From: an uncultured Gammaproteobacteria bacterium
Lineage (GTDB): Bacteria > Patescibacteriota > Patescibacteriia > Magasanikbacterales > GWA2-37-8
Assembly (NCBI GenBank): GCA_964536725.1
Contig: CAZHYJ010000002.1
Span: 27,219 to 91,218, forward strand
Direction: 5' to 3'
DNA: 64,000 nt
The position numbers and the translations under genes were made by a program. Positions 14,354 to 37,107 of this stretch are shown here, piece by piece; position 1 is the first letter of the stretch; every line of letters starts with the position of its first letter. The notes beneath the pieces are model-generated. The model was not told the origin of the DNA. It was given only the letters and a program-made list of their open reading frames with translations, and did not search any database.

Positions 14354-14365
14354 TTAATCAAAAAA

Positions 14366-14395
14366 ATATTCTCGATTAAGTCGGGAATATTTTTT
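14366..14395. terminator. Bidirectional terminator, AATATTCTCGA-ttaag-TCGGGAATATT plus T8.
   Basis: Hairpin between the convergent ctpA and era genes. Member of the CCGA-TTAAG-TCGG family. Confidence 0.6.
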
Positions 14396-14403
14396 TTGAG
14401 TTT

Positions 14404-22512: not shown

Positions 22513-22517
22513 AGAAG

Positions 22518-22617
22518 AATTTACAGTTCGAATATTTTTTGAGCGGGTTATGCGCCAAAGCGCATCCTTTTGCCCTCGCGGGCAAAAAAAGCGAAAAAAT
22601 TATTCGAACTGCAAATT
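22518..22617 (+). repeat. Structured repeat, copy B. Conserved core TTTTTTGAGCGGGTTATG...CATCC...AAAGCGAAAAAAT enclosed by a copy-specific 17-bp stem.
   Basis: Direct alignment to copies A and C. See findings. Confidence 0.7.
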
Positions 22618-22633
22618 CTGATAACTATTAGTT

Positions 22634-27517: not shown

Positions 27518-27537
27518 AAGATTAAAAGAGTCAAAAA

Positions 27538-27566
27538 AATATCCCGATTAAGTCGGGATATTTTTT
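27538..27566. terminator. Bidirectional terminator, ATATCCCGA-ttaag-TCGGGATAT plus T8.
   Basis: Perfect hairpin between convergent genes. CCGA-TTAAG-TCGG family. Confidence 0.65.
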
Positions 27567-29347
27567 TTAATGTCTTCAATCGTTAGTTGTAATTCACGAT
27601 TACCATTCCACTGGTTAACTCCTACTGTAAACGCCAAGTCAATTTTGTCTCCCGGTTTTAATTCAGTGCGCCATTTTTCGGGATGACGGTTGATATCACC
27701 TAGGCCGAAGCCGATAGTTTTTCGGACTAAGTGAGAATTATGTTTTACTAATAAACGTAAATGTTTGCCATCTTGTCCGACTGGTTCCACAGTAACAATC
27801 GTCAAGCCGCGGGCACAATATTTTGGTGTTTCATTTTTTTGTCCAAAGGGAGCAAATTTTTCTAGGGTATCAAACAGCTCCCAGTTTATTTCCTCCAGAT
27901 CAACTTCGGCGTCAATGTGGATAGTGGGGGACAGATCAACGTGTTTTAATTTTTCTGTAGCGTTGGCGATTAATTTTTCTTTAAACTCCTCCAATTTGTC
28001 TGTCGTTAAAAGAGAAAAACCACAGGCCTGGGGATGTCCACCGAATTTTGAAAATACTTCGGGGATTTCTTGAAGAGCGGCGATTAAGTTGAATTCATAA
28101 ATACTGCGACCTGATCCGGTTATCTCACCATTGGTTTTACCCATCACGATCACCGGACGGTAGTATTCATCCTTAAGACGGCCAGCAATTAATCCCAATA
28201 TTCCAGTGTTCCAATCTTCGTTGTAAACAAACAATACGGGATTTTCTTCCTGTTTAGTTTCTTTAAGTTGTTTACGCGCCTGGTTGGTTATCTGTTCCGT
28301 CAAACGTTGGCGGTCAAGATTGTTTTTGTTTAATTTGTCTGCCAGTATTATCGCTTCTCTCTCATCCTCACAAGTTAAAAGCGCAAAAGCAACATTGGCG
28401 TGATCCATTCTTCCAGCGGCGTTAATTCGGGGTACAAGTTGATACGCAACGGTATCGCTACTAATTTCTGTCTTTTTTAATTTGTCATTTTCATCGGTAA
28501 CGCCGGCAATTTGTAATAGTTTTTGTAAACCAAGGTTTTTTGTTTTGTTCAGTACAGTTAAACCATAACGAGTAATCGTACGTGCCTCGCCAATCAAGGG
28601 CATCATGTCGCCGATAATCGAGATGGCCGCCAGGTCGAGTGACCACTTTTCAAAAGATTCATGGGTTTGGCCGTCAATCAAAGTTGCATTGGTTTTTTGG
28701 TGTTCGCGGAGTAGTCCTTGTAGTAATTTAAAAGCGATACCACCACCAGACAATCCGTGGTCGGGGTAGGTTTCTCCCGGAACAAGTGCATGAATTATTG
28801 CGTCAGCTGGAGGTAATGTTTCTGGTACGGTGTGGTGGTCAGTCACAATCACTTCCATACCCAATCTTTTTGCTTCGGTGACTTCTGCGACGTTACTAAC
28901 ACCGCAGTCGCAGGTGATTATTAAATCAATTTTTTGTTCGGCAAAAAGTTTAACAGTGTTAATGTTTAGACCGTAGCCATCAGTCTCGCGATGAGGTAAA
29001 AATATCCCAACATCTTTTCCGCCTAACTTTTTAATTACCGATACCAATATTGCTCCGGCACAAACACCGTCCGCATCGTAATCGCCGTGGACAACTATTT
29101 TTTTGTTATTCTCAATGGCGGATAAAATTATCTTAACTGCCTTGTTCATGTCACGAAACAAAAAGGGATCGTGAATATTGGAAGAATAGTCAGGGTTCAA
29201 AAATTCATCAATTTCCTTCTGTGTTTTTAATCCACGATTGCGCAAAAGACGGACGGCCAAAGCAGGCAGTTCCGGGTAAGCTTGTCTTTCTGTTTCAGAA
29301 AGTTCGGGTGCGATTAACCAGCGACGTTGCATATTATTTTTTACCAA
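27548..29347 (-). CDS. recJ: Single-stranded-DNA-specific exonuclease RecJ.
   Basis: DHH motifs (VVHGDYDADGVCAGAIL, VTDHH) and a DHHA1 domain. Confidence 0.85.
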   Translation of the reverse strand: MVKNNMQRRWLIAPELSETERQAYPELPALAVRLLRNRGLKTQKEIDEFLNPDYSSNIHDPFLFRDMNKAVKIILSAIENNKKIVVHGDYDADGVCAGAILVSVIKKLGGKDVGIFLPHRETDGYGLNINTVKLFAEQKIDLIITCDCGVSNVAEVTEAKRLGMEVIVTDHHTVPETLPPADAIIHALVPGETYPDHGLSGGGIAFKLLQGLLREHQKTNATLIDGQTHESFEKWSLDLAAISIIGDMMPLIGEARTITRYGLTVLNKTKNLGLQKLLQIAGVTDENDKLKKTEISSDTVAYQLVPRINAAGRMDHANVAFALLTCEDEREAIILADKLNKNNLDRQRLTEQITNQARKQLKETKQEENPVLFVYNEDWNTGILGLIAGRLKDEYYRPVIVMGKTNGEITGSGRSIYEFNLIAALQEIPEVFSKFGGHPQACGFSLLTTDKLEEFKEKLIANATEKLKHVDLSPTIHIDAEVDLEEINWELFDTLEKFAPFGQKNETPKYCARGLTIVTVEPVGQDGKHLRLLVKHNSHLVRKTIGFGLGDINRHPEKWRTELKPGDKIDLAFTVGVNQWNGNRELQLTIEDIKKNIPT

Positions 29348-29857: not shown

Positions 29858-29962
29858 GGATTTGGGTGTCAAATATTTTTTGAGCGGGTTATGAAGCCCG
29901 CGGCTTCATCCCTGAGGCCTCGCGGCCGAGGAAAGCGAAAAAATTATTTGACACCCAAATCC
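29858..29962 (+). repeat. Structured repeat, copy A. 18-bp outer stem GGATTTGGGTGTCAAATA / TATTTGACACCCAAATCC around the conserved core.
   Basis: Direct alignment with copies B and C. Confidence 0.7.
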
Positions 29963-31798: not shown

Positions 31799-33415
31799 CT
31801 AATCTTTCAATTCTACCACCTCTGTAGTAGTGATTTGGGCTGGTTTTAACCAGCGTCGTTTTAAGCTGTTTCTGATCTCTGTGAACTCGGGAACCCTTAA
31901 TATATAACACAAAAGGCAATAAATTACTAGGCCAGCCATACCGGCAACCAGACCTTGTCCCAAAATACCCCAGAAATACTGTTGATCAAAGATATTGGCC
32001 AATGGATGTTTTAAAGCTTGTACCGCCACTGCCATTATTAATGTTGCCACGGAAATTTTCAAAACCAGTGGAATTAGACTTTCTTCCTCTAGAGTTTTGG
32101 TATGAGTGCGTAAGGCGACAACTAACATGATAGCGTTCAAGATCACACCAATGGATGCGGCCAGAGCCAATCCTGGGGCGCCGTATGGTCGCATCAAGAC
32201 CAACGCTGCGATAATACTGACGAGCTCGGCAATTACGCCAATCACAAAAGGAGTTTTGGTGTTTTGCAAAGCATAGAACGCGCGAGCCAAAAGATGAATT
32301 AGTGATTGTGCTAAAAGCCCTAGCGAAAAAAAAGCCAAAGTATTAGCGGTGTTAATTGTTGCGTCCCAATCAAACGTGCCACTACCCAATATTACACGCA
32401 CTATCTGTGCGCGCAGCAAAAGGATTAAAACAGACAAGGGGGCGATTAAAAAAATAATCTGCCGGGCGGTGTTCATTAAATGGGTGACGAATTGTTTGTT
32501 GTCATTTTTCGCAGCAGCAGCGGAAAGGAGTGGAAAAATGGCCATGGCAAAAGGGATGCCAATAATTCCAATTGGTACCGCTTGCAGATTGTTAGCGTAA
32601 TTATAAACAGCAATACTGCCCACTGGTAAAAGCGACGCCAACATGGTAATCACCACTTGATTAACTTGGGTAATAGCTATTCCTAGCGTACGTGGGATCA
32701 TCATTTTTCCGATAGTTCTCGTTTCGGGATCGCGTAAATTAAAAATTGGTTGCCAGCGCCAGCCGGTCTTATAGGCGCCATATAATTGGATGCCAGCATG
32801 TATTCCCGCCCCTAGTACCACGCCAAGTGGTAAACCAATATAACCCCAAGCGTGTACTAATCCAGTAGCACCGGCGATAATGCCGAGATTATAAAAAATT
32901 GGAGCGAGGGCGTAAAGGGTAAAATGTCGCAGTGATTGTAAAATGCCACCAGCCACCATTGAAATACCCAAGAACAACGGAGAGAGAAACATGATACGGG
33001 TGAAGCCAACCATGCGCGTGAAATTCTCTCCAGAAAATCCGGGAGCGAGTATTCGAGAAAGGGGAGCGGTGAAAACCATTCCGAGTGCACAACAAATGAT
33101 TAAGGCGACGCCGGTAATGTTGATAATGTTGTTGGCTAATTTCCAAGCATCCTTTTTATCTTGGTGTTGATAAAATAGTTTGGTGAAACTAGGAATGAAG
33201 CCAGCGGTCAGAGCGCCGACGATTAACAGATTGTAAATTAGATCAGGAATTTTGAAAGAAGCGTAATAGACGTCGATGATTGGACCGGCGCCGAAATAGT
33301 GGGCTAGGACACGGTCGCGGATCACACCCACTGCACGTGATAACAAAGAAGCGGCAGATAATACCAATGCCGCCCCGGTTATCGATTTGTATTGTGAGTT
33401 TATTATCTTAAACAT
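31799..33415 (-). CDS. murJ: Lipid II flippase MurJ (MviN).
   Basis: N-terminus GAALVLSAASLLSRAVGVIRDRVLAHYFGAG and about 14 TMs. Confidence 0.85.
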   Translation of the reverse strand: MFKIINSQYKSITGAALVLSAASLLSRAVGVIRDRVLAHYFGAGPIIDVYYASFKIPDLIYNLLIVGALTAGFIPSFTKLFYQHQDKKDAWKLANNIINITGVALIICCALGMVFTAPLSRILAPGFSGENFTRMVGFTRIMFLSPLFLGISMVAGGILQSLRHFTLYALAPIFYNLGIIAGATGLVHAWGYIGLPLGVVLGAGIHAGIQLYGAYKTGWRWQPIFNLRDPETRTIGKMMIPRTLGIAITQVNQVVITMLASLLPVGSIAVYNYANNLQAVPIGIIGIPFAMAIFPLLSAAAAKNDNKQFVTHLMNTARQIIFLIAPLSVLILLLRAQIVRVILGSGTFDWDATINTANTLAFFSLGLLAQSLIHLLARAFYALQNTKTPFVIGVIAELVSIIAALVLMRPYGAPGLALAASIGVILNAIMLVVALRTHTKTLEEESLIPLVLKISVATLIMAVAVQALKHPLANIFDQQYFWGILGQGLVAGMAGLVIYCLLCYILRVPEFTEIRNSLKRRWLKPAQITTTEVVELKD

Positions 33416-34074
33416 TAGGGTTGAGTTTGGGGGAGATTGACGGTGAGAATGGCAAAGTCGGTTCCGGGTCGAGCGGTTTCGTCACCCTGAACATAAAGCG
33501 AACCACTAGTGCCATCTTCGCGCGTGAAAGAAAATTGACGGACGTTGTTTCCTTCGGATTCTACTTCAATTTTAAAATTTGCTTTGGTTAATTCTTTGCG
33601 ATAATAGGAAATGACAAAACTTGGTTCCGCGTCTAAATTACTCCAATTGATTTGGATGGTATCGCGATGGTCGCTAACGGGTGCAGTGATAACTTGCCAG
33701 ATGCCTTCCCATCTATCAGTGCTAGTGGTAGTTTGGTTTTGTTCCATTTTTACTAACAACGGTGAGAGGATTGCTTTAGGAAAGAAGGCGGCAATCTCAA
33801 TTCCGCGGTTTTTGTATTTTCCGGAGATGATTGTGATATTATCAATCGCGTCTTTGTCATAAACAGGGATGTCAGTAGGGAAGTTCGCTGGTACTGATTT
33901 TACAGCGGTTGGACCTGGGCCAATATAGAGGCGTAGCCCAATGATAGCCAGAATAATAACCAAAAACAGACAACCGCAGCCGCTAAGGCAGGTGCGTTTG
34001 TAGGAGTGTTTTTTGGTCAGTTCATTAAGTGGTGGTTCGATGATTTCGATGTTGTCTAAATTGCGTCGGACCAT
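33415..34074 (-). CDS. Hypothetical membrane-anchored protein.
   Basis: ORF with one TM. Its start codon overlaps the murJ start region. Confidence 0.35.
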   Translation of the reverse strand: MVRRNLDNIEIIEPPLNELTKKHSYKRTCLSGCGCLFLVIILAIIGLRLYIGPGPTAVKSVPANFPTDIPVYDKDAIDNITIISGKYKNRGIEIAAFFPKAILSPLLVKMEQNQTTTSTDRWEGIWQVITAPVSDHRDTIQINWSNLDAEPSFVISYYRKELTKANFKIEVESEGNNVRQFSFTREDGTSGSLYVQGDETARPGTDFAILTVNLPQTQP

Positions 34075-34158
34075 AAAAATGTTTGATTTAATTATAGCAA
34101 ATAGAACTAAAGTTGTATAGGTGATTTTTATCTGATATACTGTTGATAAAGAGGTGCA

Positions 34159-34275
34159 GATTTTGGTTTTTAGGTTTTGGTAATTTTTTCGCTTTCCTCG
34201 GCTGCGAAGCCTCAGGGATGAGGCCTTGGCCTCATAGCCCGCTCAAAAAATACCAAAACCTAAAAACCAAAATCC
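34159..34275 (-). repeat. Structured repeat, copy C, inverted orientation. Outer stem of 24 bp or more (GATTTTGGTTTTTAGGTTTTGGTA).
   Basis: The reverse complement aligns to copies A and B. Confidence 0.7.
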
Positions 34276-34301
34276 ATAGTTTAATCTATATTATCATCAT
34301 T

Positions 34302-35666
34302 ATGCATATAACATTCTTTGGTGCAGCGCGGGAGGTGACGGGGTCTTGTAATCTTTTGCATGCGGATGGTCTGAATATTTTAGTAGATTGTGGGATGTTT
34401 CAAGGTGGTCCAGAACACGAGAGTAAAAACTTTGATCCGTTGGCTTTTAATCCGAAGGATCTAAATTCTGTCTTGGTTACCCACGCTCATCTTGATCATG
34501 TGGGGCGTTTGCCATTGCTTATTCGCGGTGGTTTTACTGGATATTTTCATGCTACACCAGCGACAATTGAATTGGCGGAATTGATCATGGAAGACACCTT
34601 GCATATCATGACCTATAACAATGAAAAACTGGGTACGCCAATTTTGTATAGTCAAACAGATATCGCAGCGGTGATGACACAGTTTAAAGCATTGGATTAT
34701 CACGAACCGTTAATTTTATCTGGTAAAACTGGTGAGGTAAAAATCGAATTTTATGAGGCAGGCCATATTTTTGGTTCGGTGTTTATTGTGATTGATGCGG
34801 AAGGGAAGCGGGTGGTTTTTTCTGGCGATGTCGGCAATGTTAATGTGCCGATTCTGCGTGAGACCGAAAGTTTGCCAAGTGGTATTGATGTTTTGGTTTG
34901 TGAATCTACTTATGGTGATCGTCTGCACGAGACTCACGAAAAACGACAGGAGATTATTCAGCGTATGGTATCGGATGCGGTATTGCATGGTGGGGTTTTA
35001 ATGATTCCGTCTTTCTCTTTAGAGAGAACGCAGGAATTGATTTATGACCTCAACGATTTGATTGATCGTAAACACGAATTACCACGTATGCCGATATTTT
35101 TGGATAGTCCATTGGCAATCGGAGCGACCAAAGTATATCGCAAGTATACCAACTATTACGACGAGGCGGCGAAAAAATTAATTGATAGCGGAGACGAGTT
35201 GTTTGAGTTTCCAGGATTGACAATGTGTGACACTAAAGAAGAATCGAAACGAATTAATCAAGTGCCAGCACCGAAGATGATTATCGCTGGTGCGGGGATG
35301 ATGAATGGTGGTCGGATTGTGCACCATGCGAAAAGGTATTTGTCAGATGAAAGAAGTACTCTGCTGATTATCGGTTATCAGGCCTCTGGCACACTCGGAA
35401 GAAGAATTTTGGAAGGGGAGTCTCCAGTGATGATATATGGCGAACAGGTGCCAGTGCGTTGTCATATTGACGCCATCGGTGCGTTGTCTGCGCATGCTGA
35501 TCAGAAGAAATTGTTGGATTGGATTGGAGGTGCTAAGATGTTACCGAAAAAAGTTTGTTTGAACCACGGTGAACCTTTGGCTTCTGAGGGGTTGGCCGAA
35601 CGATTGAATGAAGATTTGGGGGTGAAGGTTGATGTGGCAAGTTTTGGAATGAGTGTGGAGGTGTAA
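34302..35666 (+). CDS. MBL-fold beta-CASP ribonuclease (CPSF/RNase J-like RNA-metabolising metallo-beta-lactamase).
   Basis: MHITFFGAAREVTGSC and HAHLDHVGRLP motifs. Start moved to the internal ATG. Confidence 0.75.
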   Translation: MHITFFGAAREVTGSCNLLHADGLNILVDCGMFQGGPEHESKNFDPLAFNPKDLNSVLVTHAHLDHVGRLPLLIRGGFTGYFHATPATIELAELIMEDTLHIMTYNNEKLGTPILYSQTDIAAVMTQFKALDYHEPLILSGKTGEVKIEFYEAGHIFGSVFIVIDAEGKRVVFSGDVGNVNVPILRETESLPSGIDVLVCESTYGDRLHETHEKRQEIIQRMVSDAVLHGGVLMIPSFSLERTQELIYDLNDLIDRKHELPRMPIFLDSPLAIGATKVYRKYTNYYDEAAKKLIDSGDELFEFPGLTMCDTKEESKRINQVPAPKMIIAGAGMMNGGRIVHHAKRYLSDERSTLLIIGYQASGTLGRRILEGESPVMIYGEQVPVRCHIDAIGALSAHADQKKLLDWIGGAKMLPKKVCLNHGEPLASEGLAERLNEDLGVKVDVASFGMSVEV

Positions 35667-36846: not shown

Positions 36847-37107
36847 CGGTTTTCTTCATCGGCGCACGTTACGCCAACAAATACTCACCGACCACGGGCT
36901 TGGGGAAAATCGTATTCCCGGCCTCGTTTTTGTTTTCTGTTTAAGAAGTCAAAAATGAGGCTAGGAAAACGTAATGTAAAGAACAAATTAACGTTTAAGT
37001 ATAGTACAAAAAAGCGGTTTTGTCAATGTACTTTTGCACTTTTTCTGCATCCCCACTTTTTCCCTTGTTTTAGCCATTTTTTCTGTGGATAACTATGGTA
37101 AAAAATG

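Follow-up and report, generated by a model that had tools for sequence, protein, structure and literature searches.

The element examined here, copy C, lies between two genes transcribed away from each other. On the plus strand, positions 34302-35666 of the window (the whole 64-kb stretch of DNA that was analysed) encode a beta-CASP/RMMBL metallo-beta-lactamase of RNase J-like type, with PF00753, PF10996 and PF07521 matches; the true start of this gene is the ATG at 34302 and not the TTG at 34143. On the minus strand, an open reading frame at 33415-34074 codes for a protein of 219 aa. The divergent arrangement reported by the sequence-only reading is thus as described. The two promoters stand back-to-back (34091-34141) with a palindromic -35 region, TTGTATA, in common, and they were kept in five of the five relatives examined. 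The promoter of the 219-aa gene (34091-34119, minus strand) is composed of TATACA, a 17-nt spacer and TATAAT preceded by TG; it scored 10 of 12 matches in a promoter scan and is also conserved in relatives. The beta-CASP promoter (34113-34141, plus strand) is composed of TTGTAT, a 17-nt spacer and an extended -10 box, TGaTATACT; it was read by eye, falls below the threshold of the scan and is conserved in relatives, its blocks being invariant in the window, L099, L100, L101 and L103. Because copy C starts 18 nt past this -10 box, we place it in the 5' leader of the RNase gene, in sense orientation, where it extends the leader from about 45 nt to about 155 nt. Scanning positions 33950-34400 for terminator-like sites returned none, and no T-run follows the stem of copy C on either strand.

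Copy C is a long hairpin with a branched apex. Its 5' arm, GATTTTGGTTTTTAGGTTTTGGTA (34159-34182), has its exact reverse complement in the 3' arm, TACCAAAACCTAAAAACCAAAATC (34251-34274), so that 24 nt of copy-specific sequence, which includes GATTTTGGTTTTTAGGTTTTGG, form a perfect 24-bp outer stem (P1) on the plus strand. Inside it, A34183 is bulged and T6 (34184-34189), the inner conserved part of P1, pairs with A6 (34245-34250), which brings the stem to about 30 bp. The sequence-only reading had assigned a stem of at least 24 bp to the stretch ending at 34275; the length holds, and base 34275 lies outside the stem. The predicted folding energy was -57.1 kcal/mol for the plus strand (z = -9.4) and -59.0 kcal/mol for the minus strand (z = -8.4), and in both cases none of 200 shuffled sequences folded as well. 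The left arm (34159-34182) is made of TTTTGG-like units, GATTTTGG TTTTTAGG TTTTGG, a pattern that suggests slippage or stepwise growth of the stem.

We defined the plus strand of copy C as the sense strand. Read in this direction, the family alignment resolves the interior into a junction strand CGCUUU (34190-34195), whose GC pairs with the GC of GCUC (34241-34242); a 20-nt hairpin, P2 (34196-34215), with a GCGA (GNRA) loop at 34204-34207, whose pairs covary in the family; a second hairpin, P3 (34216-34240), likewise with covariation, that reads GG-AUGAGGC, a CUUG loop (34225-34228), GCCUCAU, an AG bulge and CCC; and a second junction strand, GCUC followed by A6 (34241-34250). The 55-nt core (34190-34244) recurs twice in the window, in both cases in the opposite orientation. 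Copy A (22516-22619, sense strand minus) is antisense to flanking plus-strand genes, and copy B (29858-29962, sense strand minus) lies between lepA and the next gene. The outer stems measure 24 bp in copy C, 19 bp with one mismatch in copy A and 18 bp in copy B, with the T6/A6 extension added in each. The earlier statements that the third copy is inverted relative to the other two and that its outer palindrome is the longest were therefore both correct. Copies A, B and C are also the longest local inverted repeats of the 64-kb window. A covariance model of the family (R1) found in the window these three copies and one weak match (36906-36977, plus strand; E = 0.005), an imperfect hairpin with a stem of about 30 bp and a 6-nt loop that carries no cassette. 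The latter could be an example of a core-less stem that a cassette might colonise.

The three copies belong to a repeat family with more than 110 copies in about 20 genomes of Candidatus Magasanikbacteria. We scanned the GTDB species genomes for an exact pattern of three core anchors, which returned 98 stretches, nearly all from Candidatus Magasanikbacteria metagenome-assembled genomes (MAGs), with a maximum of 15 copies per genome. One match within an open reading frame of a Saprospiraceae genome was set aside as a chance match. Applied to these loci, R1 gave 114 matches, about 13 of which the search pattern had missed, and a stricter pattern gave 17 metagenome stretches. Scans of viral contigs, phage records and plasmid records found no member of the family. 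The window gave no Rfam 15 match at the gathering thresholds, and at E values up to 10 only generic miRNA-hairpin matches far below threshold appeared. As far as these scans show, the family is confined to Candidatus Magasanikbacteria. Several TPA_asm records titled "uncultured Gammaproteobacteria" (L003, L004, L014, L016 and others) also carry the element. Some MAGs with this title are syntenic with Magasanikbacteria MAGs at 70 to 90% identity, and the titles look wrong. One of these records also contains a 149-nt hairpin followed by a T-tract (L003:681-829), with a different, larger two-hairpin core and closing helices of the same kind (UUUUGCGA ... UCGCUCAAGAG), which may represent a second family with the same architecture.

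Throughout the family, the sense strand carries the 5' arm of P1, (A)UUUUUU, CGCUUU, P2, GGAUG..P3..CAUAA-CCC, GCUC, AAAAAA(U) and the 3' arm of P1. The conserved part is a cassette of about 70 nt, AAUUUUUU-CGCUUU-P2(GNRA loop)-GGAUG..P3..CAUAA-CCC-GCUC-AAAAAAU, with the fold of a three-way junction, and in every case it caps a long copy-specific stem, up to 36 to 40 bp elsewhere in the family. Within the stem, the inner AATTTTTT/AAAAAAT is common to copies A, B and C and to the 17 metagenome copies. The pairing is supported by covariation. Among 100 aligned copies, 84.7% of the cells held standard pairs, compared to 63.1% in shuffled alignments and 34 to 51% with slid partners, and in 34 of the 45 pairs, with P1, P2 and P3 all represented, changes were seen on both sides. 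The invariance of the junction anchors is partly due to the search pattern, which required them; in the copies that the pattern had missed, the junction showed compensating changes (UUUU-GGC/GCC-AAAA, UUUU-GAGC/GCUC-AAAA, UUUUUU-GC/GC-AAAAAA), and compensated UGC/GCA variants were found as well. These changes set the pairing register (G35-C96, C36-G95), leaving a small C/UC internal loop. Two copies with an extra G (GGGAUG) also have an extra C (AACCCC).

The hairpins of the cassette are constrained in length and loop. P2 is exactly 20 nt long in 90 of the 100 copies and its loop is G(C/U)GA in 90 of the 100, while P3 spans 16 to 20 nt with CUCG, CUUG, UUCG or UGCG loops; in both hairpins, these RNA-type stable loops occur on the sense strand only. 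P1 has a semi-conserved irregularity some 8 bp from the junction; the window copies have a bulged A there and other copies an AC/AA loop, and a P2 tetraloop could perhaps reach it. In class II copies, a CU/UC mismatch in P2 corresponds to a tandem G-A pair on the antisense strand only. With the conserved loop set aside, counts of G-U against A-C favoured neither strand, the excess of A-C coming from the semi-conserved internal loop, and pairing counts did not depend on the transcribed strand. In co-directional antisense copies (for example in L033, L052, L061, L064 and L070), 58% of P1 pairs are Watson-Crick compared to about 81%, a figure measured in the common register and part of which a shift in register may explain. 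Two motif-based candidates were discarded. By eye, class II antisense copies recall a hammerhead (CUGA..GGCC..GGCC-GA-GGAAA, with the tandem G-A pair); the CUGAUGA/GAAA core is incomplete, class I copies lack the motif and Rfam gave no match. A CsrA-like GGAUG site was rejected because its GGA is paired.

We compared sites A, B and C with those of the nearest relatives (77 to 94% protein identity), from which all three copies are missing. Site C is empty in L103, L099, L100, L101/L102 and L033, where the beta-CASP protein is 94%, 89%, 85%, 79% and 64% identical, respectively, and the intergenic spacer measures 94 to 135 nt in these relatives compared to 227 nt in the window. None of these empty sites contains a palindrome, so the whole hairpin, outer stem included, is extra DNA. 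Alignment with L103 and L099 places the putative insertion, absent from L103, at 34171-34279 on the plus strand (about 109 nt, with approximate boundaries). To the right of copy C, the flank (TTTAATCTATATTAT...) has homologous sequence in the L099 and L103 leaders. The outermost 12 to 13 nt of the left arm (GATTTTGGTTTTT) match GATCTTTGTTTCT of L103 in register at 12 of 14 positions, with a rough p of about 0.01 in such T-rich sequence; if this match is real, it would suggest, tentatively, that the outer part of the right arm was newly mirrored from local sequence. In L103, at most half of the copy C stem is present in the leader. The same picture was seen at the other sites, with spacers of 17 nt (L099) and 4 nt (L101) at site B and 14 nt (L108) at site A. 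In about 57 kb from these relatives R1 detected no copy, compared to three in the 64 kb of the window.

Presence also varies elsewhere in the family. A copy found in one genome is missing from another at eight or more further sites, and the empty site usually has no hairpin (L079/L048/L086, L062/L027, L023/L035). One case is different: L053 and L077 apparently share a stem and T-tract, and of the two only L053 has the cassette. Comparison of sites A, B and C with their empty counterparts gave no convincing target-site duplication, only weak AT-rich similarities, and filled and empty sites in other genomes showed no consistent one. The sequence-only reading had proposed a mobile structured element with a preference for existing palindromes, and had suggested looking for an ancestral palindrome split by the insertion and for target-site duplications. 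A structured unit that is gained and lost is what we see; at site C there is neither a split palindrome nor a visible duplication, and the preference for palindromes is not supported there, with hints in its favour only at the level of the family (the decoupling of core and stem, L053/L077 and L067/L068). Copy A and copy B are both fixed in the samples seen from the species of the window itself. In four Logan runs contigs begin inside copy A, two of these end inside copy B, and two contigs from one JGI metagenome behave likewise; in these contigs (L104-L107, L109 and L122) the beginning or end falls within the P2 region of the two copies, so that short-read assemblies are broken by the repeat.

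Core and outer stem behave as separable parts. The core of the metagenome copy L113 differs from that of copy C at two positions, and shares even its rare GGCU/AGCC pair, with an unrelated outer stem; the same was observed for L111/L123, L110/L121 and L120/L124. Over 219 non-orthologous pairs with a core identity of at least 95%, the outer arms were 0.46 identical compared to a background of about 0.42. Conversely, L067:2265-2386 and L068:7482-7600, from the same MAG, have almost identical stems and A/T tracts and carry a class II and a class I core, respectively. Between L040 and L095, both from one MAG, all three stem differences are compensated, and L050/L066 are likewise within-genome duplicates with compensated stem differences. 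At orthologous sites, mean arm identity was 0.62, and core identity was 0.85 compared to 0.74 for random pairs. In L076:2523-2643 and L093:3595-3715, the core is inverted in place between homologous arms, with nearly identical cores and flanks about 88% identical, an arrangement for which assembly error is not fully excluded, although the arms, at about 20 nt, fall short of typical final k-mers. Taken as read, this inversion would show that the arms recombine or template-switch. Five more orthologous sites differ in orientation, and there the arms are unrelated.

Gene context, taken from crude open reading frame calls in the loci, points to the 3' ends of genes. We counted 30 convergent and 8 divergent sites, and 34 sense and 16 antisense copies between co-directional genes, which indicates a preference for gene 3' ends with an orientation bias of only 2:1. 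Many copies have the order A-tract, stem, cassette, stem, T-tract, and in 22 of 31 convergent sites an A-tract is accompanied by a T-tract. The side of the tract was also considered as a guide to gene orientation and dropped; the A and T tracts mostly occur together, so this comparison does not discriminate. In L083, L077 and window 14360-14396, a plain terminator hairpin stands at the orthologous position of a family element in L017, L053 and L071, respectively. Together, these features suggest a terminator-like or 3'-end role for many members. All three window copies lack a U-tract after the stem, so such a role may not apply in the window genome. The window also contains two canonical bidirectional terminators (14360-14396 and 27524-27576; A-tract, stem, T-tract), which have the apex CCCGAYTAAGTCGGG in common. 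Within the 8-kb stretches inspected around copies, the genes flanked by two copies are housekeeping genes. Named by eye, they are SPFH, Sua5/TsaC-like and RmlD-like genes, and no transposase was found between paired copies. In two genomes (L052:5189-6014 and L002:2768-3597), the gene between two family copies is Sua5/YrdC (TsaC)-like, also named by eye.

Several explanations were weighed against these results. The separability of core and stem would follow if the mobile unit were the cassette of about 70 nt, inserting into the loop or centre of hairpins, such as terminators, that are older than the insertion. The like cores on unrelated stems (copy C and L113, L111 and L123, L110 and L121), the arm-identity statistics, the homologous stems and common T-tract of L053/L077, the single stem with different core classes in one genome (L067/L068) and core-less long hairpins in the window such as 36906-36977 all fit this scheme. 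However, none of the three window sites that are empty in relatives holds a palindrome, the spacers at A and B leave only 4 to 17 nt, and the empty sites of L079/L048/L086, L062/L027 and L023/L035 likewise lack one, so that each site would have had to gain a palindrome and then an insertion; we consider this route possible, if unlikely. In a related scheme, the cassette would be a new kind of mobile unit that moves without a stem and then acquires its palindrome, for example by template-switch mirroring. Adjoining target DNA would be copied in inverted form by template switching, and at site C ancestral leader sequence would account for the outer 12 nt of the left arm, with the right arm a new mirror copy. 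We regard this scheme, or alternatively a new GNRA-receptor class of RNA riding on terminators, as doubtful.

The element could also be a structured RNA selected on the sense strand (a protein platform, a processing signal or an unrecognised ribozyme), its copies being kept for function with P1 free to vary. In its favour are the constancy of the P2 loop and length, the UNCG- and CUUG-type loops of P3 on the sense strand only, the possible docking of the P2 tetraloop at the P1 irregularity, covariation that extends to the junction, the 34:16 sense bias of co-directional copies and the poorer stems of antisense copies. Yet one third of the co-directional copies are antisense, cores are inverted at orthologous sites, the nearest relatives lack the element, few conserved nucleotides are unpaired, the wobble and A-C counts single out no strand, and the class II mismatches form their tandem G-A pair on the antisense strand only; overall, selection for such an RNA seems rather unlikely. 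The inverted core between the homologous arms of L076/L093 is the main support for action at the DNA level, as a recombination or inversion site of inverton-like kind or as a hairpin or cruciform in single-stranded DNA during replication, and the orientation differences at five further orthologous sites and the paired changes of L040/L095, such as template switching would give, agree with it. Against it, the 56-nt spacer between the arms is unfavourable to cruciform extrusion, the preference for gene 3' ends and the A/T tracts speak for a link with transcription, no recombinase was found in association with the copies, and the inversion is seen between genomes only and not within a population, which makes a DNA-level role improbable. 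Least credible is a role of copy C as no more than the intrinsic terminator of an adjacent transcript. Most family members do sit at terminator positions, but both neighbours of copy C are transcribed away from it, no T-run follows its stem on either strand, the scan found no terminator-like site and the element lies downstream of a conserved promoter. The sequence-only reading had doubted that a pure terminator would stand here, a doubt that these data bear out.

We therefore favour, with moderate confidence, the reading that copy C arose by a lineage-specific insertion and that the family is a mobile, non-coding hairpin repeat of MITE/REP type. The comparison of filled and empty sites suggests a recent insertion into the leader of the RNase gene, and not into an older palindrome. 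On this mobile-repeat reading, copies would be gained, lost, exchanged between stems and occasionally flipped. They would accumulate at the 3' ends of genes, where family elements may be tolerated or useful and where, with their A and T tracts, many would resemble bidirectional intrinsic terminators or 3'-end stabilisers. Copy C sits about 10 nt past the predicted start of beta-CASP transcription, so it is predicted to be transcribed in sense orientation as a very stable 5'-leader hairpin. Because it has no U-tract it should not terminate, and this lack is to be expected if the insertion was to persist ahead of an RNase gene. The long duplex might serve as a substrate for RNase III, alter the stability of the leader or be neutral. 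Some observations count against a mobile repeat: the analysis revealed no transposase, no conserved terminal repeat and no target duplication, the genes that two copies flank are housekeeping genes, and the identical cores across species could reflect purifying selection on a functional RNA instead of mobility. We infer mobility rather than repeated loss; loss in the relatives, as opposed to gain in the window lineage, is excluded by parsimony only.

REP, Correia and ERIC repeats are known mainly from cultivated proteobacteria and firmicutes. In the literature on Magasanikbacteria, Patescibacteria and the candidate phyla radiation we found neither a description of this element nor an earlier one of interspersed palindromic repeats in that radiation. 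The usual layout is turned round in this family, whose stem varies and whose branched apex is conserved, and which accounts for a visible share of terminator-like sites in genomes of about 1 Mb. Family copies break metagenome assemblies, and in one lineage copy C has altered an RNase gene's leader. Terminators and contig breaks in these genomes would be better annotated with a covariance model of the family. If cassette and stem are truly separate modules, the origin of the stem would point to a new mechanism of palindrome formation.

Among the known systems compared, integron attC sites were rejected because the ends of the family are not conserved; the outer ends are copy-specific and without GTTRRRY, and the copies are dispersed singly between housekeeping genes. 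Both orientations at one locus, as in invertons, were found between two related genomes only (L076/L093), and no invertase was identified. Short mobile non-coding elements with two adjacent hairpins, inserted between genes in either orientation, are known from fungal mitochondrial DNA as double-hairpin elements or GC clusters. The likeness lies in the two adjacent hairpins and in a mobility mechanism of unknown kind, whereas those elements belong to another compartment and other organisms, have no known sequence relationship to the family and are without a long outer stem. The many members in which an A-tract and a T-tract enclose a GC-containing lower stem at the ends of genes resemble bidirectional intrinsic terminators. 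However, terminators have loops of 3 to 8 nt and no common sequence, whereas the family has a conserved three-way junction of 70 nt as its loop.

REP stems are conserved in sequence and recognised by the RAYT transposase. Like the REP/BIME elements of proteobacteria (the REPIN-RAYT system), the family is palindromic, intergenic, present in either orientation and in many copies per genome; unlike them, its stems vary and the conserved part is the branched apex. No RAYT-like gene was seen beside the copies in a limited sample, and the foot of the variable stem holds no conserved tetranucleotide of the REP/RAYT type. REP/BIME elements occupy 3' untranslated regions and the gaps between convergent genes, where roles in the control of mRNA decay and in termination have been proposed (bioRxiv 10.64898/2026.03.23.713779). 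The family was also set beside the miniature elements. MITEs are conserved in their terminal inverted repeats and are flanked by a target duplication, TA for Correia. In contrast, the arms of the family are its least conserved part (identity 0.42 to 0.46, with only the inner T/A tract in common), its apex is conserved, no duplication was seen and no parent IS is known. With Correia (CREE/NEMIS of Neisseria), ERIC, RUP, BOX and RPE repeats, the family has in common a non-coding intergenic unit of 100 to 150 bp with inverted-repeat arms around a conserved core; small mobile sequences of the CREE/MITE kind have been reviewed (PMC2229807). As for CREE and MITEs, presence varies between related genomes, here at A, B, C and the further sites described above. 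MITEs are co-transcribed with their neighbours as long hairpins, as predicted here for copy C, and CREE are reported to be able to create promoters, to bind IHF and to be cut or protected by RNase III (PMC2649163).
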